A stretch of 64,000 nt of DNA from Escherichia coli (GTDB lineage Bacteria > Pseudomonadota > Gammaproteobacteria > Enterobacterales > Enterobacteriaceae). The stretch lies in NCBI RefSeq assembly GCF_050320075.1, contig NZ_CP190018.1; one strand, 5' to 3'. This document shows, piece after piece, positions 23,422-64,000 of the stretch; positions within the stretch are counted from its first letter, which is position 1, and each line of letters opens with the position of its first letter. The notes under the pieces were generated by a model, which ran no database searches, was not told where the DNA came from, and was given only the letters and a program-made list of their open reading frames with translations. A program made the translations under genes and the position numbers.

Positions 23422-23429
23422 ATTATTCC

Positions 23430-24803: not shown

Positions 24804-24806
24804 AAC

Positions 24807-29035: not shown

Positions 29036-29183
29036 TATTTTCTCCAGGGTGAGAAATACCCTCCTCATTAAAATTAATGAGGATATGTCAGGGATATTCA
29101 GTTATAACGAACCCGCATCGCGAAATGAATTTCGCAATGAAATAAGGGGGATTAATATCCCCCGCTATTGGTTAATTCTGTTC

Positions 29184-42756: not shown

Positions 42757-45432
42757 TTACTTCAACATATTACGAATGACATAATGCAAAATGCCGTCGT
42801 TCTGGTAGTAGGTCAACTCCGTCGCGGTGTCGATACGACAACGGCAGGGTACGACTTCCTGGCTACCATCCGCGCGCGTAAACGTCACCGGAACCGTCGC
42901 GCCGGGTTGTAGACTTTGCAGATCGACAATATCAATCTTCTCTTCCCCGATTAGCCCTAACGTTTTACGCGTCACGCCTTGCGGAAATTCTAGCGGCAGG
43001 ATGCCCATGCCAATTAAATTCGAACGGTGAATTCGTTCAAACGATTCGGCAATCACCACACGAATTCCAAGCAGACGAGGACCTTTTGCCGCCCAGTCAC
43101 GGCTGGAGCCTGATCCATACTCTTTCCCGGCAATCACCGCCAGCGGCGTTTGCTCCTGCTTATAGCGCATCGCGGCATCATAAATAGAGATGACCTCGCT
43201 GTCAGGTAAATGCCGCGTCATCCCCCCTTCAACGCCAGGCACCATTTCATTACGGATGCGAATATTGGCGAAGGTGCCGCGCATCATCACTTCATGGTTA
43301 CCACGCCGCGAACCGTAGGAGTTAAAGTCTTTTCGCTCAACACCCCGGCCTTGTAGATATCGACCCGCTGGGCTGTCGGGCTTAATACTGCCCGCCGGAG
43401 AGATATGGTCAGTGGTGACTGAATCCCCAAGCATTGCGAGGATCCGCGCACCGTGAATATCTTCCACAGGTGCTGGTGTTGCCTGCATTTCATCAAAGAA
43501 AGGCGATAAGCGAATATAGGTTGAATCCTCCTGCCAACCGTAGGTATCGGATCGTGCGACGTTAATTTCCTTCCACTCTGCTATGCCTTCAAAAACTTCT
43601 GCGTACTCTTTACGGAACATTTCTGTGGAGACTTGTTCTACCGCACGGGCAATTTCTTGTGCCGATGGCCAGATATCTTTCAGATATACCGGATCGCCTT
43701 TGCGATCGTGACCAATAGGCTCAGATGCGAGGTTGATATTCATATTTCCCGCCAGCGCATAGGCAACCACCAGCGGCGGCGAGGCCAGCCAGTTGGTTTT
43801 AACCAGCGGATGGATACGGCCTTCAAAGTTACGGTTGCCGGACAGCACTGCACCGACGGTTAAATCGCCTTTTTTGATTGCCGTTTCGATAGGATCGGGC
43901 AGCGGCCCAGAGTTACCAATACAGGTGGTACAACCATATCCCACAAGGTTAAACCCCAGTTCGTCGAGATACGGTGTCAATTTCGCTTTTGCCAGATAGT
44001 CAGAAACAACTTTCGAGCCTGGTGCCAGCGACGCTTTGACCCACGGTTGCCGCTTGAGGCCCAGAGTTACGGCTTTTTTCGCCAGCAAGCCTGCGGCCAT
44101 CAGCACACTTGGGTTAGAGGTATTGGTGCACGACGTTATCGCTGCAATGACCACAGCGCCATCAGGTAACTGATACTGATGTCCGTTCATAACATAATCG
44201 ACCGGCTGGCGATCTTTATGCGTGGCATTTACTTCCAGTTCGTTACTGGCGGCAAATGCTTTTGGTACATCGGGCAGTGCAACGCGATCCTGTGGGCGTT
44301 TTGGCCCTGCCAGGCTCGCTTCAACGTCATTCATATCCAGTTCTAACGTACTGGTAAAAATCGGTTCATCGCCCGGGTTACGCCACATGCCCTGCGCTTT
44401 GGCGTATTTTTCGACCAACTCGACCTGATCTTCACTGCGCCCGCTTAAACGCATGTAATCGAGGGTGACAGCATCGATTGGGAAGAAGCCACAGGTGGCA
44501 CCATATTCTGGCGACATATTGGCAATGGTGGCGCGATCCGCCAACGGTAGTGAATCCAGACCATCACCATAAAATTCGACGAATTTCCCCACCACGCCAT
44601 GTTTGCGCAGCATTTGGGTAACGGTGAGAACCAGGTCTGTGGCGGTAATACCTTCACGTAATTTTCCGGTGAGTTTAAAGCCCACTACGTCCGGGATAAG
44701 CATGGAAACCGGCTGACCTAACATTGCGGCTTCTGCTTCGATCCCCCCCACGCCCCACCCCAGCACGCCAAGGCCGTTGATCATGGTGGTGTGCGAGTCA
44801 GTACCAACGAGTGTATCCGGATAAGCAATCCATTCACCGTCCTGCAATTCGCTCCACACTGCTTTGCCGAGATATTCGAGGTTAACCTGATGGCAAATGC
44901 CTGTGCCTGGCGGCACGACGCTAAAACGACTGAACGCCTGCTTTCCCCATTTCAGGAACACATAACGTTCGTGGTTGCGCTCCATTTCCAGGCGCACGTT
45001 TTCTTCAAATGCCTCATCATCACCAAAACGATCGACGGTCACCGAGTGGTCAATGACCAGGTCGACCGGTGAGAGCGGGTTAACCTTTGCAGTATCGCCG
45101 CCGAGGCGTTTAACCGCTTCGCGCATTGCCGCCAGATCAACAACGGCAGGTACGCCGGTAAAGTCCTGCATCAGCACCCTTGCCGGGCGGTAGGCAATTT
45201 CACGGTCAGCATGGGCATTTTTCAGCCATCCCGCCAGCGCGTAGATATCCTCTTCGGTAACCGAGTTACCATCCTGCCAGCGCAGCAGGTTTTCGAGCAA
45301 AACTTTGAGTGACTTAGGCAAACGGGTGATATCGCCCAGTGATTTGGCAGCAAGCGGCAGGCTGTAGTAGTGGTAAGTTTTATCTTTGGCCTGCAACGTG
45401 TCCTTACTGGCTTCTCGTAGGGTTGACGACAT
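42757..45432 (-). CDS. acnA: Aconitate hydratase A
   Basis: 891 aa, [34 protein letters not shown]…. Confidence 0.95.
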
Positions 45433-45595
45433 AGCTCCTCCTTAATGACAGGGTTGCGAAGCCCTGATTCTCTTCAGGGTGAATATTAAAGATAACACAA
45501 ACATCGCGTAACGATTTGATAACAACCCAAATTGATAAAAGAGGAGAAAGCTTGTGGCAAAACAAATGAAAACCCCGCCGCAGCGGGGTCAGGGA

Positions 45596-45691
45596 TCAGT
45601 GAGTAATGATCCAGAGGAGTTCGGCCCAGAAGAGCATCGACAGAGAAAATGCGCCCATCCAGGACCAATATTTCATATTTGTGTTGATCAT
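45596..45691 (-). CDS. Candidate 31-aa hydrophobic small protein (MINTNMKYWSWMGAFSLSMLFWAELLWIITH)
   Basis: Short ORF below the track's length cut-off, found by hand in the acnA upstream region; an AAGGTG-like motif lies ~7 nt upstream; single predicted TM helix. Whether it is translated is unknown. Confidence 0.35.
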   Translation of the reverse strand: MINTNMKYWSWMGAFSLSMLFWAELLWIITH

Positions 45692-45804
45692 AGGCTACAC
45701 CTTTAACGGTTATTACTTTGTGTTGAGATAACTCAACCTGTTATTGCTGCGGTGTATTAAAAGCCCTGTAATTCATTAAAAATGGGTAATAAGAATGATG
45801 ATAA

Positions 45805-45972
45805 TTATTGTTTCGGCTGATCATCTTCAGCAAACAGTTCTATAAAGGCTTGCTGCTGCGATGTTAGTTGCCAGTCGTCTGGAATAACGACGGAACATTC
45901 CCGTTTCGTTTCTGTTTCATTGTCACTATGCTGGCATAATGGTGACGACTCCAGTTGCTCCTGACCGACCAT
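45805..45972 (-). CDS. yciX: Small protein YciX
   Basis: The in-frame start MVGQEQLESSPLCQHSDNETETKRE… gives 55 aa, the K-12 YciX length as I recall it; position between cysB and acnA. Symbol assignment is from memory. Confidence 0.6.
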   Translation of the reverse strand: MVGQEQLESSPLCQHSDNETETKRECSVVIPDDWQLTSQQQAFIELFAEDDQPKQ

Positions 45973-45974
45973 AG

Positions 45975-46115
45975 TTATCCCCACACTTTCCAAATCAGCA
46001 GTGCGACAACCACCCAGAAAAGTGCAGAACCAAGAAAAACCGCCAGCCAGGCTTTACGTTTTAATTCAGGATCGCGGCGGGGTTCCTGATTTCCAGAAGG
46101 CATTGCTAACCTCAT
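45975..46115 (-). CDS. ymiA: Small membrane protein YmiA (46 aa)
   Basis: Hand-found ORF MRLAMPSGNQEPRRDPELKRKAWLAVFLGSALFWVVVALLIWKVWG with one TM helix; ends 3 nt before the yciX start. Symbol assignment is from memory. Confidence 0.55.
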   Translation of the reverse strand: MRLAMPSGNQEPRRDPELKRKAWLAVFLGSALFWVVVALLIWKVWG

Positions 46116-46433
46116 ATAATCGCCATCACTTATCAGAAAGACGTTGAACGATTGGTGTAATTAATCATACGATGAGACAAATCCTAAAGAAACTTTAGTC
46201 AAAAATCCAGCGAATTTACGAATCGTCTCCAGTGAATAATTCAATCTTTTGACCTGAAATAGATATTTGAAAACTGGAGTTTGCGAGGCGGGTAATTAGA
46301 CACTACTTTACAGGTAATTTACCCTATAAATATGAGGGATAAAAATATTGTGCACGGTATACAAATAAGCAACAAAAGAGAATATATTCCGGCACCTTCG
46401 CTACATAAAAGGTGCCGAAAATAACGCAAGAAA

Positions 46434-47432
<999 letters not shown>

Positions 47433-47562
47433 TCAGAACATCGTTTTTTCGTCACACCTGGCGGGTGACTAATACGATTTAATAATAAAAAAGGTGCTAA
47501 CTATAACCACTATATCATTTATAGCCTTAGTGTATAGGTGTGAAGAAAAAATAATATGCAAT

Positions 47563-47590
47563 AAAAAAGGGCCGCTTTCGCGACCCTTTG
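47563..47590 (-). terminator. Intrinsic terminator of topA
   Basis: On the minus strand, hairpin aagggtcgc-gaaa-gcggccctt followed by a T-run, ~30 nt after the topA stop. Coordinates approximate. Confidence 0.6.
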
Positions 47591-47617
47591 TTTATAAAAA
47601 CCTGACAGAATTAAAGG

Positions 47618-50215
47618 TTATTTTTTTCCTTCAACCCATTTGCCATCAACATAAAATGCTGACCAGCCAGTCGCCTTTCCGTCTTTTTCCGAAGAGACAT
47701 ATTGCTGTTTGGTTTTACGGCTAAAGCGAACCATGGTCTTATTACCTTCCGGATCCTGCTGTGGCGCATCGGCCAGATAACGCAGTTTTTCCGGCAGACG
47801 GTCGCGGAAGCGATAAAGCTCTTCCACCAGTGGCGCACGTGTTTCACGCGATTTCGGGAAGGTATTGGCCGCCAGGAACACACCGGCAGCACCGTCACGC
47901 AGCACGAAATAAGCATCTGATTTTTCGCACGGCAGCTCCGGTAATGGCACCGGATCTTCTTTCGGTGGTGCCACTTCGCCGTTACGTAAAATCTTACGCG
48001 TGTTTTTACACTCTTCGTTAGTGCAGGCCATGTATTTACCGAAACGCCCCATTTTCAGGTGCATTTCAGAGCCACATTTTTCACACTCAACGATCGGGCC
48101 GTCATAACCTTTAATGCGGAATTCGCCCTCTTCGATCTCGTAACCGTCGCAGGTTGGGTTATTACCACAGACATGCAACTTACGTTTCGGATCGATGAGA
48201 TAGCTGTCCATCGCCGTGCCGCATTTCGGGCAACGACGTTTTGCGCGCAGCGCGTTGGTTTCAGCGTCTTCGCCTTCCAGCACGTTCAGCACTTCGTTTT
48301 CCGGCACCAGGTTAATGGTGGTTTTGCAACGCTCTTTCGGCGGCAGCGCATAGCCAGAACAGCCAAGGAATACCCCGGTGCTCGCTGTGCGAATCCCCAT
48401 TTTGCGACCACAAGTCGGGCAGTCAATGCTGGTCAGAACCATCTGGTTCGGGCGCATCCCCCCCTCTTCCGGATCTTTTTCAGCTTTATCTAACTGCTGG
48501 GTGAAATCCGAGAAGAAGTGATCCAGTACAGCTTTCCACTCTGCTTCGTGATTTGCCACCTGGTCGAGGCTGTTTTCCATCTGTGCGGTGAAGTCGTAGT
48601 TCATTAACTCATGGAAATTTTCTTCAAGGCGATCGGTGACAATTTCACCCATTTTTTCCGCGTAGAAACGACGATTTTCTACTCGCACATAGCCACGATC
48701 CTGAATGGTCGAAATGATCGACGCATAGGTAGACGGACGACCGATGCCGCGTTTTTCCAGCTCTTTAACCAACGATGCTTCACTGAAACGCGCTGGCGGC
48801 TTGGTAAAGTGCTGGGCTGGTGTCAGTTCAACGAGTGTCAAAGCATCGCCTTTATCGACTGCCGGTAAGATACGATCTTCATCGCCTTTACGCAGCGCAG
48901 GCATCACTTTCGTCCAGCCATCAAAGCGCAAAATACGACCGCGTGCTTTCAGGCGGAAATCGCCCGCACCAACGGTCAGCGTCGTGGAGTCATATTTCGC
49001 TGGGGTCATCTGGCAGGCAACGAACTGACGCCAGATTAACTGGTACAGTTTCTGCGCATCTGCTTCCATATCCTTCAGCGATTCCGCCATCACATTGACG
49101 TCAGAAGGACGAATCGCTTCGTGCGCTTCCTGTGAGTTTTCTTTGCTGGCGTACTGATTCGGACTTTCCGGCAGATATTTCTTACCAAAATTATCGCTGA
49201 TATAACCGCGAACCATATTTACCGCGTCCTGACTCAGGTTGGTGGAGTCGGTACGCATGTATGTGATATAGCCAGCTTCATACAAACGCTGCGCCATCAT
49301 CATGGTTTTTTTCACGCCAAAACCAAGACGGGTGCTGGCAGCTTGTTGCAGCGTAGAGGTAATAAAAGGAGCGCCAGGTTTACTGGTTGTCGGTTTGTCT
49401 TCACGTTCCAGCACGCTGTAGCGCGCTTTTTCCAGCAGACTTACCGCAGCCTGAGTTTGTTCTTTGTTGACCGGACGGAACGGTTTGTCGTTCTGATGAG
49501 TCACCTGCAACGCCAACGCTTCACCAGATGGCGTGGTCGTGCTGGCATCGACTTCCCAGAACTCTTCCGGTACGAACGCTTTAATTTCACGCTCACGCTC
49601 GACCACCAGGCGGACCGCCACCGACTGCACACGACCGGCAGACAGACCACGAGCGATCTTTTTCCACAGCAGCGGCGAAACCATATACCCCACCACGCGG
49701 TCCATAAAGCGACGCGCCTGCTGGGCATTAACACGATCAATATTCAGCTCACCTGGTTTGTTAAATGCCTGGCGGATCGCGTTTTTAGTAATTTCGTTAA
49801 ACACCACTCGGCTATAGCGCGCATCATCACCACCAATCACTTCCCGCAGGTGCCATGCAATGGCTTCCCCTTCGCGGTCAAGGTCGGTTGCGAGATAGAT
49901 GTGGTCGGCTTTTTCAGCCAGTTGTTTCAGTTCAGAGACGACCTTCTCTTTACCAGGCAACACTTCATAGTGCGCCTCCCAATTGTGCCACGGGTCAACC
50001 CCCATACGGTTGACGAGAGCGCCACGTTCATCCTTTTTAGGCTTTTTAGCCGTCTTGGTGGAGGTAGAGTCGGCACTCTTTTTGGCAGCTGAGCCACTGG
50101 TCGGCAAATCGCGGATGTGACCGACGCTGGATTTCACCACGTAGTCACTACCCAGATACTTGTTGATCGTTTTGGCTTTTGCCGGGGACTCAACGATGAC
50201 AAGAGCTTTACCCAT
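47618..50215 (-). CDS. topA: DNA topoisomerase I
   Basis: Track ORF starts at an upstream GTG; the in-frame ATG ([27 protein letters not shown]…) gives 865 aa; C-terminal zinc-ribbon Cys clusters present. Confidence 0.95.
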
Positions 50216-50594
50216 ATTCACCTTACCTAATTTGATTCTTCCAGGAATGCGTCGCACGTTGATAAACCTTCCACTGGCAACGAGTTACCGATATGGACTC
50301 GCTCTCTGCGGATATCAACCCCTTGTCGTGACTCTGTTCACGAAAATTCAGGTGACTGAGTTAACAGGTCTTGGCCTACAGGCGCTATAGCACGACGGAA
50401 TTTTGGTCGAATGTCAAGCAAATCTATTGCCAGATTGACGAAAGCGTCACACTGTACCTGATAAAATCCGATACGCAACTTTATTAGCATGCAAAATCCA
50501 AAGTTGCCAGTAAGGCGCTCTTGCCACCAGCGTGGTATATTTGTCTGCAAGCCATGCCTGGCGTAGACTAATGTCCTTGTTTAAGGAGTAAATA

Positions 50595-50846
50595 ATGAAC
50601 AAAGAGACACAACCCATCGACCGCGAGACGCTGTTGAAAGAGGCCAACAAAATCATTCGTGAGCATGAGGATACGCTCGCAGGGATTGAAGCCACCGGCG
50701 TCACGCAGCGTAATGGCGTGCTGGTATTTACCGGCGACTACTTTTTAGATGAACAAGGATTGCCAACAGCCAAAAGCACCGCGGTGTTTAATATGTTCAA
50801 ACACCTGGCCCATGTGCTTTCAGAAAAATATCACCTGGTTGATTAA
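50595..50846 (+). CDS. yciN: Small protein YciN (DUF2498)
   Basis: 83 aa, [36 protein letters not shown]…; aggag upstream. Confidence 0.85.
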
Positions 50847-50881
50847 AGCAAAACGCGAGGTCTTAGCCTCGCGTTTGTCTT

Positions 50882-51931
50882 TTACATCAATGGCTTTTGA
50901 CCCCGCTGCCACCAGCGTAGCAACAATCGATCGGCGCTCTCTGCCGCGCTGCCGGTGAATCGGTCAATGAGTCGTTTACGCTGCATATAGCGTACATTGA
51001 CCACTTCACGGCCTTCCATCAGGCTAAGAATAACTTCATCACTGGTGTTGATTTCATCAACCAGGCCTTTCTCTACCGCCTGTTGTCCGTACCAGTGTTC
51101 ACCCGTTGCCACCTGTTCAATATCCAGAGACGGACGCATACGCTTCACAAAATCTTTAAATAACTGATGCGTTTCGTTCAGCTCTTCGCGGAATTTCTCC
51201 CGCCCTTCTTCGGTATTTTCACCCAGCAACGTCAGCGTGCGCTTATACTGCCCGGCGGTGTGCAGTTCGATATCAATATCTTTGCTTTTCAGGAAGCGGT
51301 TAAAGTTGGGCATTTGCGCCACCACGCCAATAGAACCCACAATAGCAAACGGTGCGGAAACAATTTTGTCTGCCACACAGGCCATCATGTAACCGCCACT
51401 GGCAGCAACTTTGTCTACCGTAACAGTTAAAGGAATGTTTTTATCACGCAGACGCTGCAGCTGCGAAGCCGCCAGCCCGTAACCATGCACCATGCCACCA
51501 GGGCTTTCCAGACGTAGCACAACCTGATCCTGCGGTTTGAATGCTGCGAGTACCGCCGTTATCTCTTCACGTAGCGAGTTCACTTCATGGGCGTCCATGC
51601 TGCCTTTAAAATCCAGCACCCAGACGCGAGGTTTACTGTCAGTTGCCACCTCGCCCAGTTTGGCTTTCGCTTTTGCTGCTTTCGCTTCTTGTTTGTGCTT
51701 TTTCTTCTGCGTTTTGTGCCACTGTTTTTGCTGATGAGTGTCCATCAGCGCCGCAGCCAGTTCTTCTTTCATCTCCTTATACTGTTCGCTGATATTGTTG
51801 ACCCGTAACTCGCCACGCTGGCGTTTATTACGTTGAGCAACATTGACAATAATGGCGGCAATCGCCGCAATCGCTAGCACAACGGTAACGATTTTCGCCA
51901 AAAACAAACCATATTCAGACAACAATTCCAC
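50882..51931 (-). CDS. sohB: S49-family periplasmic protease SohB
   Basis: 349 aa; N-terminal TM segment, Lys-rich linker, ClpP/SppA-type peptidase domain. Confidence 0.9.
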   Translation of the reverse strand: MELLSEYGLFLAKIVTVVLAIAAIAAIIVNVAQRNKRQRGELRVNNISEQYKEMKEELAAALMDTHQQKQWHKTQKKKHKQEAKAAKAKAKLGEVATDSKPRVWVLDFKGSMDAHEVNSLREEITAVLAAFKPQDQVVLRLESPGGMVHGYGLAASQLQRLRDKNIPLTVTVDKVAASGGYMMACVADKIVSAPFAIVGSIGVVAQMPNFNRFLKSKDIDIELHTAGQYKRTLTLLGENTEEGREKFREELNETHQLFKDFVKRMRPSLDIEQVATGEHWYGQQAVEKGLVDEINTSDEVILSLMEGREVVNVRYMQRKRLIDRFTGSAAESADRLLLRWWQRGQKPLM

Positions 51932-52150
51932 GAGTCCCCACCTTGGTTAAACAACGCTTTGGCTCACAGTTTACAACAGGCATGTTAAGCCGTCTCGCAG
52001 AGATGTTATTGCAGCGAAAGTATGACAAAGTATCCATTTTGCGGTGTTATCGCCCCAGGCTGATTGAAATGCCCTTCTGTTTCAGGCATAAAGCCCCAAA
52101 GTCATAAAGTACACTGGCAGCGCGACAGACAACGTCGTTGAGGAGTAGCC

Positions 52151-52909
52151 ATGCATTACCAGCCAAAACAAGATTTACTCAATGATCGCATTATCCTAGT
52201 GACGGGAGCCAGCGATGGTATTGGCCGTGAAGCCGCGATGACGTATGCACGCTATGGTGCGACAGTGATTCTGTTGGGCCGTAATGAAGAAAAATTACGT
52301 CAGGTAGCCAGCCACATAAACGAAGAAACTGGACGTCAGCCACAGTGGTTTATTCTCGATTTGCTGACCTGCACGTCCGAAGATTGCCAACAACTGGCAC
52401 AGCGCATTGCCGTTAATTATCCGCGTCTGGATGGTGTTTTGCATAATGCCGGATTGCTCGGCGATGTTTGCCCAATGAGCGAACAAAATCCGCAGGTCTG
52501 GCAGGACGTCATGCAGGTCAACGTTAATGCCACCTTTATGCTCACCCAGGCACTGCTTCCTTTATTACTCAAATCGGACGCCGGTTCACTGGTCTTTACT
52601 TCATCAAGCGTTGGACGTCAGGGACGAGCCAACTGGGGCGCATATGCAGCGTCGAAATTTGCCACCGAAGGGATGATGCAGGTACTGGCCGATGAATATC
52701 AGCAGCGCCTGCGCGTCAACTGCATTAACCCAGGCGGTACGCGCACCGCAATGCGGGCCAGCGCCTTCCCGACCGAAGATCCACAGAAACTTAAAACACC
52801 CGCTGATATCATGCCGCTCTACCTCTGGCTGATGGGCGATGACAGCCGCCGTAAAACCGGCATGACCTTTGACGCCCAACCGGGCCGTAAACCAGGAATT
52901 TCCCAATGA
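52151..52909 (+). CDS. yciK: Short-chain dehydrogenase/reductase YciK
   Basis: 252 aa; Rossmann motif VTGASDGIGRE and catalytic YxxxK (YAASK). Confidence 0.9.
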   Translation: MHYQPKQDLLNDRIILVTGASDGIGREAAMTYARYGATVILLGRNEEKLRQVASHINEETGRQPQWFILDLLTCTSEDCQQLAQRIAVNYPRLDGVLHNAGLLGDVCPMSEQNPQVWQDVMQVNVNATFMLTQALLPLLLKSDAGSLVFTSSSVGRQGRANWGAYAASKFATEGMMQVLADEYQQRLRVNCINPGGTRTAMRASAFPTEDPQKLKTPADIMPLYLWLMGDDSRRKTGMTFDAQPGRKPGISQ

Positions 52910-53496
52910 GTGATGAACGCTACCAACAGCGTCAGCAGCGAGTGAAAGAAAAAGTCGATGCTCGTGTGGCCCAGGCCCAGGATGAACGCGGTATTATCAT
53001 CGTTTTTACCGGCAATGGAAAAGGCAAAACCACCGCGGCATTTGGTACGGCAACTCGTGCAGTAGGCCATGGCAAAAAAGTGGGTATCGTGCAGTTTATT
53101 AAAGGCACCTGGCCTAATGGCGAGCGCAATCTACTGGAGCCACATGGCGTTGAGTTTCAGGTGATGGCAACGGGCTTTACCTGGGATACACAAAATCGCG
53201 AATCTGATACCGCGGCCTGCCGTGAAGTCTGGCAACATGCCAAACGAATGCTGGCCGATCCTTCACTGGATATGGTTTTGCTCGATGAGCTGACTTATAT
53301 GGTGGCGTATGATTATTTGCCACTTGAAGAAGTGGTGAAGGCGTTAAATGAACGTCCACATCAGCAAACCGTCATTATTACGGGTCGTGGTTGTCATCGG
53401 GATATACTTGAACTGGCGGATACGGTAAGTGAATTACGCCCCGTGAAACATGCGTTTGATGCCGGTGTAAAAGCGCAGATAGGGATTGACTACTAA
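52906..53496 (+). CDS. btuR: Cob(I)yrinic acid a,c-diamide adenosyltransferase
   Basis: 196 aa; P-loop GNGKGKTTAAFG; overlaps the yciK stop. Confidence 0.9.
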   Translation: MSDERYQQRQQRVKEKVDARVAQAQDERGIIIVFTGNGKGKTTAAFGTATRAVGHGKKVGIVQFIKGTWPNGERNLLEPHGVEFQVMATGFTWDTQNRESDTAACREVWQHAKRMLADPSLDMVLLDELTYMVAYDYLPLEEVVKALNERPHQQTVIITGRGCHRDILELADTVSELRPVKHAFDAGVKAQIGIDY

Positions 53497-53501
53497 GTGA
53501 A

Positions 53502-53531
53502 AGCACCTCAAAAGAAGCCTCTTGAGGTGCT
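53502..53531 (+). terminator. btuR intrinsic terminator hairpin
   Basis: Perfect 10-bp stem agcacctcaa / ttgaggtgct with an 11-nt loop, followed by ttt; the IS1 end starts about 6 bp downstream. Confidence 0.6.
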
Positions 53532-53592
53532 TTAATCGGTAATGGTGCCAACTTACTGATTTAGTGTATGATGGTGTTTTTGAGGTGCTCCC

Positions 53593-53868
53593 GTGGCTTC
53601 CATCTCCATCAGTTGTCCCTCCTGCTCAGCTACTGAAGGCGTGGTGCGTAACGGTAAAAGTACTGCCGGACATCAGCGCTATCTCTGCTCTCACTGCCGT
53701 AAAACATGGCAACTGCAGTTCACTTACACCGCTTCTCAACCCGGTACACACCAGAAAATCATTGATATGGCCATGAATGGTGTTGGATGCCGGGCAACCG
53801 CCCGCATTATGGGCGTTGGCCTCAACACGATTTTACGTCACTTAAAAAACTCAGGCCGCAGTCGGTAA
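53593..53868 (+). CDS. insA: IS1 InsA (transposition inhibitor / N-terminal part of the transposase)
   Basis: 91 aa, [43 protein letters not shown]…; differs at a few positions from the InsA sequence I recall (V4I, D15E). Confidence 0.9.
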
Positions 53869-54290
53869 CCTCGCGCATACAGCCGGGCAGTGATGTGATT
53901 GTCTGCGCTGAAATGGACGAACAGTGGGGCTACGTCGGTGCTAAATCACGTCAGCGCTGGCTGTTTTACGCGTATGACAGGATACGGAGGACGGTTGTGG
54001 CGCACGTCTTCGGTGAACGCACTCTGGCCACACTGGAGCGTCTTCTGAGCCTGCTGTCGGCCTTTGAGGTCGTGGTATGGATGACGGATGGCTGGCCGCT
54101 GTATGAATCCCGCCTGAAGGGAAAGCTGCACGTAATCAGCAAGCGTTACACTCAGCGCATTGAGCGACATAACCTGAATCTGAGACAACATCTGGCAAGG
54201 CTGGGACGGAAGTCACTGTCGTTCTCAAAATCGGTGGAGCTGCATGACAAAGTCATCGGGCATTATCTGAACATAAAACACTATCAGTAA
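53787..54290 (+). CDS. insB: IS1 InsB (transposase C-terminal part, expressed as an InsAB' fusion by -1 frameshift)
   Basis: 167-aa ORF in the -1 frame relative to insA; contains the A-run region where IS1 frameshifting is known to occur. Confidence 0.85.
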
Positions 54291-54358
54291 GTTGGAGTCA
54301 TTACCGCTTCAAATGAAGAAAAGGCCCCGCAGGGCCTTTATTTTATACTTATCTTAAA

Positions 54359-55234
54359 TTAACCGTTATTATTACGTCCACCAGAACGACGACCGCCGCT
54401 CACCTGACTGTGACGCTTAACCGCTCGACGAATCTGATTCGCCTTCATACGACGACGGTCTTTTTCTACAGCGACTTTAGAGCTGGTTTCTGGCGGTAGC
54501 TCCACCAGTTCGCGCAGATAGTTAGTCTGGGCGAGGTCCAGCTCCGTCCAGCCACCGCGTGGCAGACCTTTCGGCAGTGGGATATCACCGTAACGAACAC
54601 GGATCAGGCGGCTTACCTGCACACCAACCGCTTCCCAAAGACGACGAACTTCACGGTTACGGCCTTCGGTCAGAGTAACGTTGTACCACTGGTTGATCCC
54701 TTCGCCGCCGCTGAACTTGATGGTTTTAAAGGCTGCCGGACCATCTTCCAACTGCACGCCACGACTCAAATCACGCAGTTTCGCGTCGTCAACCTGACCA
54801 AATACACGCACGGCATATTCACGTTCAACTTCACGGCTTGGATGCATTAAGCGGTTTGCCAGTTCACCGTCGGTGGTAAACAGCAGCAGACCGCAGGTAT
54901 TAACGTCCAGACGACCCACGGCAATCCAGCGCGCACCGCGCAGCTTTGGCAGACGGTCAAACACCGTTGGACGCCCTTCCGGATCGTTACGGGTACACAA
55001 CTCACCTTCCGGTTTGTAATAGGCCAGAACGCGACAAATTTGTTCAGCGGACTCACGTACCGAAATAAGGTGACCATCGATACGGATTTTCAATCCAGGG
55101 GTAACTTCAACGCGATCGCCGAGTTTAGCAATTTTGCCATCAACACTCACACGACCGGCTTCAATAATAGATTCGATTTCACGGCGAGAACCGTGGCCGG
55201 CACGCGCCAGCACTTTCTGTAGCTTTTCGCTCAT
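54359..55234 (-). CDS. rluB: 23S rRNA pseudouridine(2605) synthase RluB
   Basis: The in-frame start [34 protein letters not shown]… gives 291 aa; S4 domain plus RsuA-family catalytic domain; Arg/Gly-rich C-terminus. Confidence 0.9.
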
Positions 55235-55444
55235 AGAGCTTCCTTTTGGTGTCGCCTTCCCAGGCGTCTGATATGCTTTTGTGCAACAGTGAGTCAGAAC
55301 TGACATCTGACTCACTGATAGTAAAGTCTGTTTGAACTCTTCAGGCCTTAAGTAAACGACTCGACGTTTATCGGCCTGGCTTTGAGGCGCAACATACTAC
55401 ACTATCTTTATGGTTAAAGCTTGTTTCGATTAACGTCGATTTGG

Positions 55445-57340
55445 TTACCAACCACCACCGCCTCCGCCACCCGCACCGCCGCCAGCACCACCACCGGAAT
55501 AGCTTCGCCCCAACAAACTGGTATAGGCCCCGCAACTCAGGTGCGTCTGCAATGAGAATAAAACGCCACTACGGGCAATTTCCGGGGCGCTAACAGCCGC
55601 TGTGAGTGATGGGGTGATACGTTCTGCCCATTCTCTACCAAGGTTTGCCGAGACCGCCCAACCTAACAACGCGTAATCCAGTTTCCGTGTTTCCCCTTTC
55701 CGCCGCCGCCCACTGTGTGTTGCCGCCTCTTTACGCGCAAGATAGTTAACGATAGCTTCACCGTGGGCATAACGTTGCTGCCCAGTTTGGGTAAACTTTG
55801 GCAGAAAAATATACCCCATGCCAGTGAGATAACCGGTCAGGACAACAGCGCTAAAATAACCCGCTGGCATATACCAGTAAAAGAATACATCTCCGACATT
55901 GATATAGAGAGAATAGAAGGCCACACCTGAACAAATCAGTGGTAAAAACAAAGTGATGATTACACGATTAACGCAAGGCTTGTCATCATCGCGGGCAAAC
56001 AAAAGCTCAAGGGAACAAAATAAAAAAGGAAGAAGCCAGCAGATCATAATAAACATATCGCCCACCAGACTCATTCCTGCCCAGCCTACGGGACTCAGGT
56101 TACCGTAGAGAATGACCGCCAATATTGCCATTCCGCCCCATTGCAAAAACGCATCAGGTCGGTAAAACGAAGACTTTTTACGCGGCAGATAAAATTTCTG
56201 CATCCGTAAAAATGCCCTGCGTAACACTCTGTTGCGTCTCCCCGTAAGAACGACCTTATCGCCTTTACGAAATAACGCTTCCAGTAATAACTGCTCTGCG
56301 GGCAGTAATACCGCATTATTTCTGGTCGCGCCTTCATTAACACGAATCAGGATTTGCTGGTTCTTGTCATACTGATCTTCCAGATGAATTTTGCCTTTCA
56401 CAATCAGATTTACGATATCGGCACAAAAACCTTTATCGTCGTAAACCAGCTTCGCATCGAGACGTAACATGCCGGGCGTGTAATCTGGCGGAATGACATC
56501 GGTTTCAATCACATCTACCGGCGTAAATTGCGGCCTGCGCTTCCAGAGATATAACCATCCACAAACCATGAGCAGACACGGAAACCAAATTAACAACGAT
56601 GACGTGGAGGGTAAAAGAAGATGGCTGAAAATATTCGTCGTTTGTAGAGCCGGGGCATTGCTAAGTAAAGCGTGAGGCCAGCGATAGAGGACCGTGAAGT
56701 CTTCACGATAAAACGGATCGCGGGATTCAATTCTTCCGTCCTCAAGGATGCGGCCATTTCGATATGTGTCGCCCTCTTCTCCGGTAAAGAGATCAATTTC
56801 GCTAAATGGATTACCCGCAATATTAGAGATCTGGAGAGAAAATCGGGTCTTATAAATTTCAAACGGCCACTTGTTACCGGTCACGTTCCAGATTAACAGA
56901 TCAGAATCTCCCTCACGCAGGAAAGCATTTTTAACCTGATAATGAATTTGATAATGATAGTCACCTTGAGGCAAGAAACGTTGTTTATCGCCCACGACAA
57001 TACTCATTAAACCGATATGCCAGTCAAGATGCCAGGGTTCAGGAACACCATCACGGGTGACGCCAACAATATGATAGTTCAGCAGTGCAGCGTCACCATC
57101 AGGCTGCATCCATAGTCGTGGTAAATCACGATAAAATCCGTGCTTAATCTGCTGATTTCGCGCCTGAAAATGAATGTTCTCTTTGATGTCGAGCACCCCA
57201 TCCAGTTGCAGGGTGGCTTCAACATCAAAGAGCGAGATCCCTTCTTCATAAGAAGGGATCTCCGTGTTTTCTGCATAACTTAGAGATGATACAAACAGCC
57301 CTGCTATCAACAGCAAAATGCAGCGAAACTTCCCTGCCAT
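55445..57340 (-). CDS. yciQ: Inner-membrane protein YciQ (DUF2207)
   Basis: 631 aa; signal/TM N-terminus, several TM helices, C-terminal Gly-rich tail (SYSGGGAGGGAGGGGGGGW). Confidence 0.85.
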   Translation of the reverse strand: MAGKFRCILLLIAGLFVSSLSYAENTEIPSYEEGISLFDVEATLQLDGVLDIKENIHFQARNQQIKHGFYRDLPRLWMQPDGDAALLNYHIVGVTRDGVPEPWHLDWHIGLMSIVVGDKQRFLPQGDYHYQIHYQVKNAFLREGDSDLLIWNVTGNKWPFEIYKTRFSLQISNIAGNPFSEIDLFTGEEGDTYRNGRILEDGRIESRDPFYREDFTVLYRWPHALLSNAPALQTTNIFSHLLLPSTSSLLIWFPCLLMVCGWLYLWKRRPQFTPVDVIETDVIPPDYTPGMLRLDAKLVYDDKGFCADIVNLIVKGKIHLEDQYDKNQQILIRVNEGATRNNAVLLPAEQLLLEALFRKGDKVVLTGRRNRVLRRAFLRMQKFYLPRKKSSFYRPDAFLQWGGMAILAVILYGNLSPVGWAGMSLVGDMFIMICWLLPFLFCSLELLFARDDDKPCVNRVIITLFLPLICSGVAFYSLYINVGDVFFYWYMPAGYFSAVVLTGYLTGMGYIFLPKFTQTGQQRYAHGEAIVNYLARKEAATHSGRRRKGETRKLDYALLGWAVSANLGREWAERITPSLTAAVSAPEIARSGVLFSLQTHLSCGAYTSLLGRSYSGGGAGGGAGGGGGGGW

Positions 57341-57367
57341 AGTCTTCCATCCGTGGAACGCAATTTG

Positions 57368-57988
57368 TTATAAGAAAGGCTTCACATCACCTACGCCTTC
57401 ACGCACCACGACCGGCGTATCATCAGTAAGATCAATAACCGTTGTTGGTTTCTGCCCGAGATAGCCGCCGTGAATAATCAAATCTACCTGTTTTTCCAGA
57501 CGGTCTTTAATTTCTTCCGGATCGGATTCGGTAAATTCGCTACCTGGCAGCATCAGTGATGTGGAAAGCATCGGTTCGCCCAATGCTTCAAGCAGCGCCT
57601 GCGCAATCGGGTTAGAAGGCACACGCATACCGATGGTTTTGCGTTTTTCCTGCAACAGACGGCGTGGCACCTCCTTCGTCCCTTTCAGGATGAAGGTGTA
57701 GTTGCCCGGCGTGTTGTTTTTCATTAAACGAAACGCAACGTTATCCACGAATGAATAGGTCGAGAGCTCAGAAAGATCGCGACACATCAGGGTAAAGTTG
57801 TGACCGTCCGGCAGCTGGCGAATACGACAAATACGCTCCATGGCGTTTTTATCTTCAATTTTACAGCCGAGCGCATAGCCGGAATCAGTTGGATAAACAA
57901 TCACCCCGCCTTTACGCACGATCTCCACCGCCTGGTTGATCAGACGTTGCTGCGGGTTATCAGGATGAATATAAAAAAACTGGCTCAT
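57368..57988 (-). CDS. yciO: Sua5/YciO/YrdC-family dsRNA-binding protein YciO
   Basis: The in-frame start MSQFFYIHPDNPQQRLINQAVEIVRKGGVIVYPTDSGYALGC… gives 206 aa. Confidence 0.9.
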   Translation of the reverse strand: MSQFFYIHPDNPQQRLINQAVEIVRKGGVIVYPTDSGYALGCKIEDKNAMERICRIRQLPDGHNFTLMCRDLSELSTYSFVDNVAFRLMKNNTPGNYTFILKGTKEVPRRLLQEKRKTIGMRVPSNPIAQALLEALGEPMLSTSLMLPGSEFTESDPEEIKDRLEKQVDLIIHGGYLGQKPTTVIDLTDDTPVVVREGVGDVKPFL

Positions 57989-58866
57989 AATTCCCTCTCT
58001 GTGGTGTTCTGCGGCTGTTCCCATAGCTGCCAGACGCCTTCAACGCCTGCAGGCAGCCAGAGTTTACGACCCAGTTCAATCCACGGGCACGGCTGATGAA
58101 AATCAGATCCTTGTGATGCCCATAAATGATGCTGACGCGCAAGTGTGGCCAGCTGGGTGCGTTCATTGGGCGATTGCTGGCACTGCGCGACTTCCATCGC
58201 GTCGCCGTGGTGTTCGGCAAAATGCGCAACCAATCTTTTCAGCCATTTAGCACTAAGATTGTACCGCCCAGGATGAGCTAGCACCGCCTTACCGCCAGAA
58301 TGATGAATGACATCAATAGCTTGTTCTATTGTACACCACTGTGGCGGAACGTATCCGGTTTTCCCGCGCGCCAGATATTTTTTAAAGACATCCGCCATTG
58401 AACTGGCTTTGCCGCACTCCACAAGGAAACGCGCAAAATGACCGCGCGTCACCGCACCGCCCTGCGCCAGTCGTTGCGCGCCTTCCAGCGCCCCAGGTAT
58501 TTGCGCTTTTTCAAGTCTTTCAGCAATCAGCTGCGCCCGCTGATTGCGCCGTTCTGTCTGCTGCGCGAGGAACTCACACATTAGCGGATGAGTAATATCA
58601 ATATTCAGCCCGACAATATGAATTTCATGATTTTCCCAGACCGTGGAAATTTCCACGCCGGGAATAAGATTCAGCGCCAGTCCCGAACGTGAAATTTCCT
58701 CTCTTGCTGGTGAGATTGCAGCTGTGGTGTCATGGTCGGTGATCGCCAGGGTGCCGACGCGCATCTCGACTGCACGGTGCACCAATGCTTCTGGCGTCAG
58801 GCAGCCATCGGAAGCTGTGGTATGGCTGTGCAGGTCGTAAATCACTGCGTAATTCGTGTCGCTCAA
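57985..58866 (-). CDS. trpH: PHP-domain phosphoesterase TrpH (YciV)
   Basis: 293 aa, MSDTNYAVIYDLHSHTTASDGCLTPEALVHRAVEM…; overlaps the yciO start by 4 nt. Confidence 0.9.
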   Translation of the reverse strand: MSDTNYAVIYDLHSHTTASDGCLTPEALVHRAVEMRVGTLAITDHDTTAAISPAREEISRSGLALNLIPGVEISTVWENHEIHIVGLNIDITHPLMCEFLAQQTERRNQRAQLIAERLEKAQIPGALEGAQRLAQGGAVTRGHFARFLVECGKASSMADVFKKYLARGKTGYVPPQWCTIEQAIDVIHHSGGKAVLAHPGRYNLSAKWLKRLVAHFAEHHGDAMEVAQCQQSPNERTQLATLARQHHLWASQGSDFHQPCPWIELGRKLWLPAGVEGVWQLWEQPQNTTEREL

Positions 58867-58941
58867 GGCGCACTCCCGTTCTGGATAATGTTTTTTGCGC
58901 CGACATCATAACGGTTCTGGCAAATATTCTGAAATGAGCTG

Positions 58942-58980
58942 TTGACAATTAATCATCGAACTAGTTAACTAGTACGCAAG
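58942..58980 (+). promoter_or_regulatory. trp promoter (-35 TTGACA, -10 TTAACT) with overlapping TrpR operator
   Basis: gagctgTTGACAattaatcatCGAACTAGTTAACTAGTACGcaagttcacg is the classical trp promoter/operator; the operator is the palindrome around ACTAGTTAACTAGT. Confidence 0.9.
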
Positions 58981-59003
58981 TTCACGTAAAAAGGGTATCG
59001 ACA

Positions 59004-59048
59004 ATGAAAGCAATTTTCGTACTGAAAGGTTGGTGGCGCACTTCCTGA
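59004..59048 (+). CDS. trpL: trp operon leader peptide
   Basis: atgaaagcaattttcgtactgaaaggttggtggcgcacttcctga encodes [14 protein letters not shown] with the tandem Trp codons. Confidence 0.9.
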
Positions 59049-59089
59049 AACGGGCAGTGTATTCACCATGCGTAAAGCAATCAGATACC

Positions 59090-59118
59090 CAGCCCGCCTA
59101 ATGAGCGGGCTTTTTTTT
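59090..59118 (+). terminator. trp attenuator (3:4 terminator hairpin plus U-run)
   Basis: cagcccgcctaatgagcgggc followed by tttttttt, ~20 nt upstream of trpE. Confidence 0.9.
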
Positions 59119-59139
59119 GAACAAAATTAGAGAATAACA

Positions 59140-60702
59140 ATGCAAACACAAAAACCGACTCTCGAACTGCTAACCTGCGAAGGCACTTATCGCGACAACC
59201 CGACTGCGCTTTTTCACCAGTTGTGTGGGAATCGTCCAGCAACGCTGCTGCTGGAATCCGCAGATATCGACAGCAAAGATGATTTAAAAAGCCTGCTGCT
59301 GATAGACAGTGCGCTGCGCATTACAGCATTAGGTGACACTGTCACAATTCAGGCACTTTCTGGCAATGGCGAAGCCCTGCTGGCACTACTGGATAACGCC
59401 CTGCCTGCGGGTGTGGAAAGTGAACAATCACCAAACTGCCGTGTGCTGCGCTTCCCCCCTGTCAGTCCACTGCTGGATGAAGACGCCCGCTTATGCTCCC
59501 TTTCTGTTTTTAACGCTTTCCGTTTATTGCAGAATCTGTTGAATGTACCGAAGGAAGAACGAGAAGCCATGTTCTTCGGCGGCCTGTTCTCTTATGACCT
59601 TGTGGCGGGATTTGAAGATTTACCGCAACTGGCAGCGGAAAATAACTGTCCTGATTTCTGCTTTTATCTCGCAGAAACGCTGATGGTGATTGACCATCAG
59701 AAAAAAAGCACCCGCATTCAGGCCAGCCTGTTTGCTCCGAATGAAGAAGAAAAACAACGTCTCACTGCTCGCCTGAACGATCTTCGCCAGCAGCTGACCG
59801 AAGCCGCGCCACCGCTGCCGGTGGTTTCCGTGCCGCATATGCGTTGTGAATGTAATCAGAGCGATGAAGAGTTCGGTGGCGTAGTGCGTTTGTTGCAAAA
59901 AGCGATTCGCGCTGGAGAAATTTTCCAGGTGGTGCCATCTCGCCGTTTCTCTCTGCCCTGCCCGTCACCGCTGGCGGCCTATTACGTGCTGAAAAAGAGT
60001 AATCCCAGCCCGTACATGTTTTTTATGCAGGATAATGATTTCACCCTGTTTGGCGCGTCGCCGGAAAGTTCGCTCAAGTATGACGCCACCAGCCGCCAGA
60101 TTGAGATCTACCCGATTGCCGGAACACGCCCGCGCGGTCGTCGCGCCGATGGCTCGCTGGACAGAGACCTCGACAGCCGCATCGAACTGGAAATGCGTAC
60201 CGATCATAAAGAGCTTTCTGAACATCTGATGCTGGTGGATCTCGCCCGTAATGATCTGGCACGCATTTGCACCCCCGGCAGCCGCTACGTCGCCGATCTC
60301 ACCAAAGTTGACCGTTACTCTTACGTGATGCACCTGGTCTCCCGCGTGGTCGGTGAGCTGCGCCACGATCTCGACGCCCTGCACGCTTACCGCGCCTGTA
60401 TGAATATGGGGACGTTAAGCGGTGCGCCGAAAGTACGCGCTATGCAGTTAATTGCCGAGGCGGAAGGTCGTCGCCGCGGCAGCTACGGCGGCGCGGTAGG
60501 TTATTTCACCGCGCATGGCGATCTCGACACCTGCATTGTGATCCGCTCGGCGCTGGTGGAAAACGGTATCGCCACCGTGCAAGCCGGTGCTGGCGTGGTA
60601 CTTGATTCTGTTCCGCAGTCGGAAGCCGACGAAACCCGTAATAAAGCCCGCGCTGTACTGCGCGCTATTGCCACCGCGCATCATGCACAGGAGACGTTCT
60701 GA
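59140..60702 (+). CDS. trpE: Anthranilate synthase component I
   Basis: 520 aa, [30 protein letters not shown]…. Confidence 0.95.
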
Positions 60703-62297
60703 TGGCTGACATTCTGCTGCTCGATAATATCGACTCTTTTACTTACAACCTGGCAGATCAGTTGCGCAGCAATGGTCATAACGTGGTGATTTACCGCAAC
60801 CATATTCCGGCGCAGACCTTAATTGAACGCCTGGCGACAATGAGCAATCCGGTGCTGATGCTTTCTCCTGGCCCCGGTGTGCCAAGTGAAGCCGGTTGTA
60901 TGCCGGAACTCCTCACCCGCCTGCGCGGCAAGCTGCCAATTATTGGCATTTGCCTCGGTCATCAGGCGATTGTCGAAGCTTATGGGGGGTATGTCGGTCA
61001 AGCGGGCGAAATTCTTCACGGTAAAGCCTCCAGCATTGAACATGACGGTCAGGCGATGTTTGCCGGATTAACAAACCCGCTGCCAGTGGCGCGTTATCAC
61101 TCGCTGGTTGGCAGTAACATTCCGGCCGGTTTAACCATCAACGCCCATTTTAATGGCATGGTGATGGCGGTGCGTCACGATGCAGATCGCGTTTGTGGAT
61201 TCCAGTTCCATCCGGAATCCATTCTTACTACCCAGGGCGCTCGCCTGCTGGAACAAACATTGGCCTGGGCGCAGCAGAAACTGGAACCGACTAACACGCT
61301 GCAACCGATTCTGGAAAAACTGTATCAGGCGCAGACGCTTAGCCAGCAAGAAAGCCACCAGCTGTTTTCAGCGGTGGTGCGTGGCGAGCTGAAGCCAGAA
61401 CAGCTCGCGGCGGCGCTGGTGAGCATGAAAATTCGCGGCGAGCACCCGAACGAAATCGCCGGGGCAGCAACTGCCCTTCTGGAAAATGCTGCGCCATTCC
61501 CGCGCCCGGATTATCTGTTTGCCGATATCGTCGGCACCGGTGGTGACGGCAGCAACAGTATCAATATTTCTACCGCCAGTGCGTTTGTCGCCGCGGCCTG
61601 TGGGCTGAAAGTGGCGAAACACGGCAACCGTAGTGTCTCCAGTAAATCCGGTTCGTCGGATCTGCTGGCGGCATTCGGTATTAATCTTGATATGAACGCC
61701 GATAAATCGCGCCAGGCGCTGGATGAGTTAGGCGTCTGTTTCCTCTTTGCGCCGAAATATCACACCGGATTTCGCCACGCGATGCCGGTTCGCCAGCAAC
61801 TGAAAACCCGCACCCTGTTCAACGTGCTGGGGCCACTGATTAACCCGGCGCATCCTCCGCTGGCGTTAATTGGTGTTTATAGTCCGGAACTGGTGCTACC
61901 GATTGCCGAAACCTTGCGCGTGCTGGGGTATCAACGCGCGGCAGTGGTGCACAGCGGCGGGATGGATGAAGTTTCATTACACGCGCCGACAATCGTTGCC
62001 GAACTGCATGACGGCGAAATTAAGAGCTATCAATTGACCGCTGAAGATTTTGGCCTGACCCCCTACCACCAGGAGCAACTGGCAGGTGGAACACCGGAAG
62101 AAAACCGTGACATTTTAACACGCTTGTTACAAGGTAAAGGCGACGCCGCCCATGAAGCAGCCGTCGCGGCGAATGTCGCCATGTTAATGCGCCTGCATGG
62201 CCATGAAGATCTGCAAGCCAATGCGCAAACTGTTCTTGAGGTACTGCGCAGTGGTTCCGCTTACGACAGAGTCACCGCACTGGCGGCACGAGGGTAA
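60702..62297 (+). CDS. trpD: Bifunctional anthranilate synthase component II / anthranilate phosphoribosyltransferase
   Basis: 531 aa; start overlaps the trpE stop (…TGATGG…); N-terminal glutamine amidotransferase plus PRTase domain. Confidence 0.95.
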
Positions 62298-63659
62298 ATG
62301 ATGCAAACCGTTTTAGCGAAAATCGTCGCAGACAAGGCGATTTGGGTAGAAACCCGCAAACAGCAGCAACCGCTGGCCAGTTTTCAGAATGAGATTCAGC
62401 CGAGCACGCGACATTTTTATGATGCGCTACAGGGTGCACGCACGGCGTTTATTCTTGAGTGCAAGAAAGCCTCGCCGTCAAAAGGCGTGATCCGTGATGA
62501 TTTCGATCCGGCACGCATTGCCGCCATTTATAAACATTACGCTTCGGCAATTTCGGTGCTGACTGATGAGAAATATTTTCAGGGGAGCTTTGATTTCCTC
62601 CCAATCGTCAGCCAAATCGCCCCGCAGCCGATTTTATGTAAAGACTTCATTATCGACCCTTACCAGATCTATCTGGCGCGCTATTACCAGGCCGATGCCT
62701 GCTTATTAATGCTTTCAGTACTGGATGACGAACAATATCGCCACCTTGCCGCCGTCGCCCACAGTCTGGAGATGGGCGTGCTTACCGAAGTCAGTAATGA
62801 AGAGGAACTGGAGCGCGCCATTGCATTGGGGGCAAAGGTCGTTGGCATCAACAACCGCGATCTACGTGATTTGTCGATTGATCTCAACCGTACCCGCGAG
62901 CTTGCGCCGAAACTGGGGCACAACGTGACGGTAATCAGCGAATCCGGCATCAATACTTACGCTCAGGTGCGCGAGTTAAGCCACTTCGCTAACGGTTTTC
63001 TGATTGGTTCGGCGTTGATGGCCCATGACGATTTGAACGCCGCCGTGCGCCGGGTGTTGCTGGGTGAGAATAAAGTATGTGGCCTGACGCGTGGGCAAGA
63101 TGCTAGAGCCGCTTATGACGCGGGCGCGATTTACGGTGGGTTGATTTTTGTTACAACGTCACCGCGTTGCGTCAACGTTGAACAGGCGCAGGAAGTGATG
63201 GCTGCGGCACCGTTGCAGTATGTTGGCGTGTTCCGCAATCACGATATTGCCGATGTGGTGGACAAAGCTAAGGTGTTATCGCTGGCGGCAGTGCAACTGC
63301 ATGGTAATGAAGATCAGCTGTATATCGATACGCTGCGTGAAGCTCTGCCAGCACACGTTGCCATCTGGAAAGCATTAAGCGTCGGTGAAACCCTGCCCGC
63401 CCGCGAGCTTCAGCACGTTGATAAATATGTTTTAGACAACGGCCAGGGTGGAAGCGGTCAACGTTTCGACTGGTCACTGTTAAACGGTCAATCGCTTGGC
63501 AACGTTCTGCTGGCGGGGGGCTTAGGCGCAGATAACTGCGTGGAAGCGGCACAAACCGGCTGCGCCGGACTTGATTTTAATTCTGCTGTAGAGTCGCAAC
63601 CGGGCATCAAAGACGCACGTCTTTTGGCCTCGGTTTTCCAGACGCTGCGCGCATATTAA
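62298..63659 (+). CDS. trpC: Bifunctional indole-3-glycerol-phosphate synthase / phosphoribosylanthranilate isomerase
   Basis: 453 aa, [18 protein letters not shown]…. Confidence 0.95.
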
Positions 63660-63670
63660 GGAAAGGAACA

Positions 63671-64000
63671 ATGACAACATTACTTAACCCGTATTTTGGT
63701 GAGTTTGGCGGCATGTACGTGCCACAAATCCTGATGCCTGCTCTGCGCCAGCTGGAAGAAGCTTTTGTCAGCGCGCAAAAAGATCCTGAATTTCAGGCTC
63801 AGTTCAACGACCTGCTGAAAAACTATGCCGGGCGTCCAACCGCACTCACCAAATGCCAGAACATTACGGCTGGCACTAACACCACGCTGTATCTCAAGCG
63901 CGAAGATTTGCTGCACGGCGGCGCGCATAAAACCAACCAGGTGCTCGGCCAGGCTTTGCTGGCGAAGCGGATGGGTAAAACGGAAATCATCGCCGAAACC
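63671..64000 (+). CDS. trpB: Tryptophan synthase beta chain, N-terminal 110 codons (continues past the window end)
   Basis: ATG at 63671 preceded by aggaaagg; [32 protein letters not shown]…; truncated by the window edge. Confidence 0.9.

Follow-up and report, generated by a model that had tools for sequence, protein, structure and literature searches.

Simple insertion of IS1 usually produces an 8-9-bp direct duplication of the target, and an IS copy that stands without one is best taken as a marker of lost or rearranged DNA, for which comparison with relatives can recover what went. IS-mediated adjacent deletion is said to have been first described by Reif and Saedler in 1975, for IS1 in the gal region, and was reportedly analysed for IS1 by Turlan and Chandler in 1995. 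IS copies that lack a target-site duplication (TSD) are commonly explained by such adjacent deletions or by recombination between two IS copies, and some movements of IS5 and IS481 have been proposed to come with large rearrangements and no duplications (PMC11708052). Transposition of IS1 itself is mainly replicative (PMC12428005). Here we describe an IS1 copy in a 64,000-nucleotide stretch of Escherichia coli DNA (the window, meaning the whole stretch analysed), which occupies exactly the place that a 1,447-bp islet has in other strains.

The IS1 element and its surroundings

The window carries a complete IS1 of 768 bp at 53538-54305, in + orientation, between btuR and rluB, two convergent genes whose 3' ends both face the element (Table 1). 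For rluB, the list of open reading frames gives a longer, GTG-initiated frame. The initial annotation had described a complete IS1 with both terminal inverted repeats and intact insA and insB, and this description is borne out, with the ends now fixed exactly. Compared as inverted repeats, IRL and IRR agree at 20/23 positions, so that the element has the ~768 bp and the ~23-bp imperfect repeats of the IS1 family. InsA matches Zn_ribbon_InsA and HTH_Tnp_IS1, with both hits (PF03811 and PF12759) exceeding the Pfam cut-offs, and the insB frame scores 147.7 bits against the NCBIfam model transpos_IS1 (NF033558; cut-off 100). The A6C motif has a described role in the -1 frameshift that gives InsAB' (PMC12428005), and RefSeq annotates the identical locus of strain YZLc1-3 as 'IS1 family transposase, programmed frameshift', with a joined CDS. 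The promoter-like site overlapping IRL has the position described for the weak IS1 promoter, which partly overlaps this repeat (PMC12428005).

Table 1 Features of the btuR-rluB region in the window (strand given as + or -; a point marks features listed with no strand)
Feature	Position	Strand	Description or basis
btuR/cobO, cob(I)yrinic acid a,c-diamide adenosyltransferase	52906-53496	+	196-aa ORF; RefSeq cobO WP_001278881.1 in the identical record
btuR-side hairpin stem	53500-53533	.	Inverted repeat; retained unchanged
Left flanking 9-mer GCTTTAATC	53529-53537	.	Final bases before the deletion/IS1 junction
IRL, GGTAATGGTGCCAACTTACTGAT	53538-53560	+	Left terminal inverted repeat
Promoter-like site (GTGCCA, 16-nt spacer, TATGAT)	53545-53572	+	Consensus scan; overlaps IRL
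insA, 91 aa, zinc ribbon and helix-turn-helix	53593-53868	+	PF03811, 4.3e-21; PF12759, 4.7e-31
InsAB' fusion	53593-54290	+	insA and insB frames
insB frame, DDE domain	53787-54290	+	PF03400 (DDE_Tnp_IS1), 1-131 of 131 positions, E 1.3e-74
A6C -1 frameshift motif TTAAAAAAC	53842-53850	+	
IRR, ATCAGTAAGTTGGAGTCATTACC	54283-54305	+	Right terminal inverted repeat
Right flanking 9-mer GCTTCAAAT	54306-54314	.	Opening bases after the deletion/IS1 junction
rluB 3'-end bidirectional intrinsic-terminator-like hairpin	54320-54339	.	Called on both strands, 8 pairs, 5 G-C; unchanged
rluB, 23S rRNA pseudouridine 2605 synthase	54359-55234	-	RefSeq, L001 4122-4997, identical record

The element shares with the IS1 family its terminal inverted repeats, the insA and insB frames, the A6C frameshift site and the DDE domain, but it belongs to a non-K-12 isoform: K-12 IS1A has the same length (768 bp) and is 93.2% identical, and in IRL the sequence GGTAATGGTGCC differs at three positions from the GGTGATGCTGCC of K-12 IS1A. 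The MG1655 copy of IS1A (NC_000913.3 19796-20563; L010 85-96 and 865-876) also stands without a flanking direct repeat, with GTAGTAATTGCT before it and TACCTCAATGTG after it. The IS1 of the window has 100% identical copies on many chromosomes and plasmids of E. coli, and copies with at least 99% identity are present in 749 records. Intact frames, together with identical copies at so many sites and replicons, suggest that this copy would be active in transposition.

Elsewhere in the window, puuP (APC family permease, putrescine import; 14960-16235) is a frameshifted pseudogene in the annotation of the identical YZLc1-3 record. Between sapF and fabI, at 22258-29750, lies a five-gene efflux cluster made up of a TetR regulator, an RND adaptor, an RND permease, an outer-membrane factor and an MFS transporter, which K-12 is not known to have at this place. 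Of the Rfam families, the window matches just the sRNA STnc180 (45562-45764, -) and the trp operon leader (59025-59118, +), both of them ordinary for this region.

The replaced islet and the missing duplication

At the exact coordinates no direct repeat of 8-9 bp surrounds the IS1 of the window, in which it differs from a simple IS1 insertion. The adjoining 9-mers, GCTTTAATC and GCTTCAAAT, are identical at 6/9 positions, in agreement with the initial annotation, which had called the flanks similar without being identical, had named a perfect duplication at exact coordinates as an outcome that would tell against it, and had offered a degenerated duplication, an IS1-mediated rearrangement or deletion, or chance as explanations. 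Comparison with an IS1-free btuR-rluB region, which it had proposed as a check, decides between these. Strain CFSAN061763 carries 1,447 bp, with two annotated hypothetical genes, exactly between ...GCTTTAATC and GCTTCAAAT..., and outside this interval it equals the window without a mismatch over 591 bp (left) and 603 bp (right). At locus L005, where the islet occupies 592-2038, GCTTTAATC is followed by islet sequence beginning ATGATTAT, and islet sequence ending in CTATTTATCAT directly precedes GCTTCAAAT; all of this is absent from the window between 53537 and 54306. The coordinates of hits in other genomes imply an equal spacing of 1,447 bp. The islet has a G+C content of 36%, against 51% for the window. 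IS1 thus stands exactly in place of the islet, which lies between the two 9-mers in the intact allele. Of the options offered initially, IS1-mediated rearrangement or deletion proved correct, and the statement that IS1 was inserted between two terminators holds for the location and fails as an account of a simple insertion, as the two-gene interior of the spacer is gone.

Both 9-mers are found unchanged in IS1-free genomes, 1,447 bp apart and each in its own context, and this is hard to reconcile with a simple insertion whose 9-bp duplication later decayed by point mutation, so that both 9-mers would descend from one. Agreement at six of nine positions does speak for a common origin, since random pairs of 9-mers reach it with p ~0.012-0.016. 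However, the 591 and 603 bp of flanking sequence carry no substitution at all, against which three substitutions within 9 bp are not credible, and when the flanks joined without IS1 were used as a query, no E. coli genome was found in which they are contiguous or joined through a single 9-mer. We therefore reject a degenerated duplication as next to impossible. Chance, as a cause of the missing duplication, is not borne out either, given that IS1 replaces 1,447 bp: the target duplication is a property of the simple insertion event and not of the IS1 element, and its absence is explained by the deletion.

The second resemblance that had been reported, a 10-mer occurring twice, is likewise real: TTGAGGTGCT is present at 53522, in the btuR-side hairpin, and at 53580, within IS1, where it contains the insA ribosome-binding region. 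It is native to the hairpin in ~938 IS1-free genomes and native to IS1 as well, its IS1 copy starts 42 bp from the joint at the IS1 terminus, and a common 10-mer arises in ~1.7% of flank shuffles, on which grounds we rejected it as a recombination trace or target signal. Since both resemblances, that of the 9-mers and that of the 10-mer, join sequences that exist independently elsewhere, they are coincidental, and neither is a trace of the event.

The genome screens covered 5,426 genomes, all of them complete. The left-flank allele is present in ~938 and the right-flank allele in ~1,236, and roughly one E. coli genome in five has the islet between the btuR-side hairpin and the rluB terminator. 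K-12 and most other genomes, strains A10 and 2013C-3181 among them, have instead a spacer of 39 bp that is unrelated and holds a single hairpin (TCTGTAAAAATGCCGGATATGACGTCCGGCATACTTTGAT), and no IS1. The possibility, raised with the initial annotation, that the same IS1 already stands at this site in K-12 is thereby rejected. HS-02 (NZ_CP172818.1; L004 800-1180) shows a 455-bp spacer that includes ~400 bp of near-pure poly-T with scattered other bases; we set it aside as a third allele, as this spacer is most likely an assembly or basecalling artefact.

The junctions of the window IS1 with its flanks, each alone and both together, occur in two of the 5,426 complete genomes, YZLc1-3, a chicken isolate from China, and Ec-U3, a human isolate. 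Positions 50238-57605 of the window equal YZLc1-3 locus L001 exactly, the window from 44000 to 64000 matches the YZLc1-3 record in one 100% piece, and the comparison as a whole covers 27,369 window bases in two overlapping stretches with no mismatch; Ec-U3 matches the window from 44000 to 64000 almost perfectly. From the restriction of the junctions to these two genomes it follows that the deletion allele is derived and confined to one lineage. The same pair of genomes bears on the possibility that an assembler collapsed the islet or misjoined its edges at the repeat. IS elements are common sites of misassembly and the HS-02 assembly is clearly corrupted at this very locus, but YZLc1-3 and Ec-U3 are independent complete assemblies that share both junctions exactly, and the joints lie precisely at the IS1 termini, so that an artefact is extremely improbable. 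The two chromosomes carry ~22 and ~26 IS1 ends, a genome-wide count that the initial annotation had suggested making, which is roughly twice the median of ~10-11 per genome.

The two hairpins form the outer ends of the islet-bearing spacer allele, which measures 1,541 bp (41 + 1,447 + 53 bp) and in which the 3' end of the islet's 102-aa gene, too, is closely followed by the btuR-side hairpin. Their adjacency to IS1 had been seen correctly, at distances given as ~6 and ~15; the gaps are 4 nt from the btuR-side stem and 14 nt from the rluB-side stem. The RNA of the btuR-side hairpin has a predicted fold of -21 kcal/mol (z -4.4), and the same stem in the islet-bearing allele one of -19.3 kcal/mol (z -5.6). 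A consensus terminator scan did not call this hairpin, because its T-run (TTTAATC) is weak. For the rluB hairpin the predicted fold of -16.2 kcal/mol is identical with IS1 or the islet alongside. Since both hairpins keep their sequence, as do the bases just downstream of them, and their predicted folds hardly differ, altered 3'-end formation of btuR and rluB, which had been suggested initially, finds no support in the sequence and is unlikely; no polar or 3'-end effect on either gene would be expected.

We also observed that the 5' arm of the btuR-side hairpin, AGCACCTCAAAA (53502-53513), is complementary at 12/12 positions to TTTTGAGGTGCT in IS1 (53578-53589), a stretch that includes the insA ribosome-binding region. 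For a hypothetical RNA that reads through from 53497 to 53600, the 5' arm is predicted to pair with the IS1 copy of the 10-mer and not with its local partner (-33.1 kcal/mol, z -3.2). The juxtaposition of hairpin arm and IS1 arose by chance.

Routes by which the islet may have been lost

Precise IS termini, a missing duplication and the loss of adjacent DNA relative to otherwise identical relatives are together the signature of an IS-associated deletion. All three are found here: DNA present in close relatives is missing beside a retained IS1 that has no target-site duplication, and the joints lie exactly at the IS1 termini, as expected for joints made by a transposase. We consider it most likely, with a probability of about 0.8, that IS1 was inserted at one edge of the islet and that an adjacent deletion followed. 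In the first step, IS1 would have entered one islet edge with a normal 8-9-bp duplication; in the second, its transposase would have attacked a site at the opposite edge in an intramolecular replicative transposition, by which the intervening DNA would be lost as a circle and one IS1 copy would be joined to a new flank. Such a route is consistent with replicative transposition as the main pathway of IS1.

This route would pass through a precursor in which IS1 stands, with its duplication, at one or the other junction beside an intact islet. For an insertion on the btuR side followed by a rightward adjacent deletion (precursor A), the junction to be expected is GTTGGAGTCATTACC+GCTTTAATCATGATTAT, and for the reverse (precursor B), it is TATTTATCATGCTTCAAAT+GGTAATGGTGCC. 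Four junction queries for the two possible precursors found neither in the 5,426 complete genomes, and 39 further contigs, reached by a context look-up of the 102-aa protein, yielded none either. As no precursor was found, we infer the order of the two steps and the direction of the deletion, as well as the edge that was hit first and the sub-mechanism, and the mechanism is assigned by parsimony.

What the precursor searches did return were independent insertions, in EC488 and MS 21-1. The EC488 element is of the identical IS1 isoform; it lies 31 bp further to the right, where it interrupts the T-run of the rluB terminator, and is flanked by a clean 8-bp duplication, TTATTTTA (L006 2590-3375). 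That of MS 21-1 is an IS1A inside the 333-aa gene of the islet, with a clean 9-bp duplication, AACTTAACA (L022 1780-2575). These clean duplications indicate that IS1 normally duplicates its target here. The 1.5-kb islet looks like a recurrent target of IS1. Three independent IS1 events in one AT-rich islet of this size fit the preference for AT-rich targets that is reported for IS1. Many database entries for the 333-aa protein that are marked 'partial' stop at the edge of a contig, as would fit a frequent breaking of draft assemblies by IS elements. The related strain FDAARGOS_1281, 98.2% identical over 20 kb, has an intact islet; in it, ymiC and yciX are separated by an IS1, and yciN and sohB by an IS200C (L007 1839-2536 and 7733-8191). 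The neighbourhood thus collects IS elements in several lineages.

The EC488 and MS 21-1 insertions have the same orientation, and this repeated targeting also favours an unlikely alternative, recombination between two IS1 copies. Here two direct-orientation copies, one per islet edge and each with its own duplication, would have recombined by a RecA-dependent route, deleting the islet and one copy and leaving a hybrid IS1 with one flank from each insertion; the junction types to be expected beforehand are IRR+GCTTTAATCATGATT and TTATCATGCTTCAAAT+IRL. The end sequence would be identical to that seen, the lineage is IS1-rich (~22-26 ends per chromosome), and recombination of this kind is a recognised cause of missing duplications (PMC11708052). 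Against it, one lineage would have had to receive two independent insertions less than 1.5 kb apart ahead of the deletion; neither of the single-insertion intermediates was seen in the 5,426 genomes, and the scheme is less parsimonious than one insertion followed by one transposase-mediated deletion. The window holds no further IS1 copy with which that at 53538-54305 might have recombined.

Finally, the missing precursor could mean that there never was one. In a single-step event, IS1 ends would have been joined to targets 1,447 bp apart, or insertion would have been coupled to deletion, and a duplication would never have existed. Failure to find a precursor in the 5,426 complete genomes and the 39 contigs is what this predicts, and the IS5 and IS481 movements cited above offer a proposed parallel. 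However, the absence of a transient intermediate among complete genomes weighs little, no such behaviour of IS1 was found in the literature we looked at, and all 14 of the 14 IS-plus-deletion events in a long-term evolution experiment proved, on earlier time points, to be multi-step adjacent deletions (PMC11708052). We regard a one-step origin as very unlikely; if true, the locus would show, in a natural strain and for IS1, the kind of TSD-less movement that has been proposed for IS5 and IS481. Adjacent deletion, recombination between IS1 copies and a single-step event would all leave the same sequence, and it is the parsimony of one insertion and one adjacent deletion that makes us favour the two-step route.

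The lost genes and comparison with described systems

The real change brought about by the event is that the YZLc1-3/Ec-U3 lineage has lost a lipoprotein-like gene and a small partner gene. The islet holds two minus-strand genes, encoding a lipoprotein-like protein of 333 aa and a protein of 102 aa (102-105 aa). Neither had a significant match in Pfam, NCBIfam, PADLOC, PHROGs or PDB sequences, and the databases name them only 'hypothetical protein' or 'lipoprotein'. An AlphaFold2 model made from a 12-sequence alignment is predicted to be mostly helical, at low confidence (pLDDT 49.8). The 333-aa protein has homologues in Escherichia, E. albertii and Citrobacter only, with identity down to 51%, and in Citrobacter sp. 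ANG330 the pair occupies the same rluB-cobO site, at 51% identity. Loci of the pair were recorded at L005 592-2038 and L023 4001-5320. As the pair is found at the same site in Citrobacter and in about a fifth of E. coli, the 39-bp spacer of K-12 may itself be the product of an older loss, and the pair, conserved in place from Citrobacter to Escherichia, may have a function worth finding.

Set beside the described systems, the locus most resembles an IS-mediated adjacent deletion: one IS copy is kept with precise ends, neighbouring DNA is missing, and the flanks, of which one is old and one new, carry no duplication. It differs from the adjacent deletions described so far in its small size (1.4 kb) and in that the precursor insertion is unobserved here, and what it took away is exactly one accessory islet, with the terminators on both sides left in place. 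Homologous recombination between IS copies gives the same product, a single IS with non-matching flanks, but needs two prior insertions, of which none was seen. With the TSD-less movement proposed for IS5 and IS481 the locus has in common that an IS lies in the middle of a deletion, lacks a duplication and has no precursor known for it; that proposal, however, concerns other IS families, and the precursor is absent here from a sparse natural sampling and not from a controlled time series. The significance of the locus beyond its correct annotation is small: the phenomenon is already known, and the btuR-rluB interval of this lineage is an ordinary, textbook case of IS-associated deletion.
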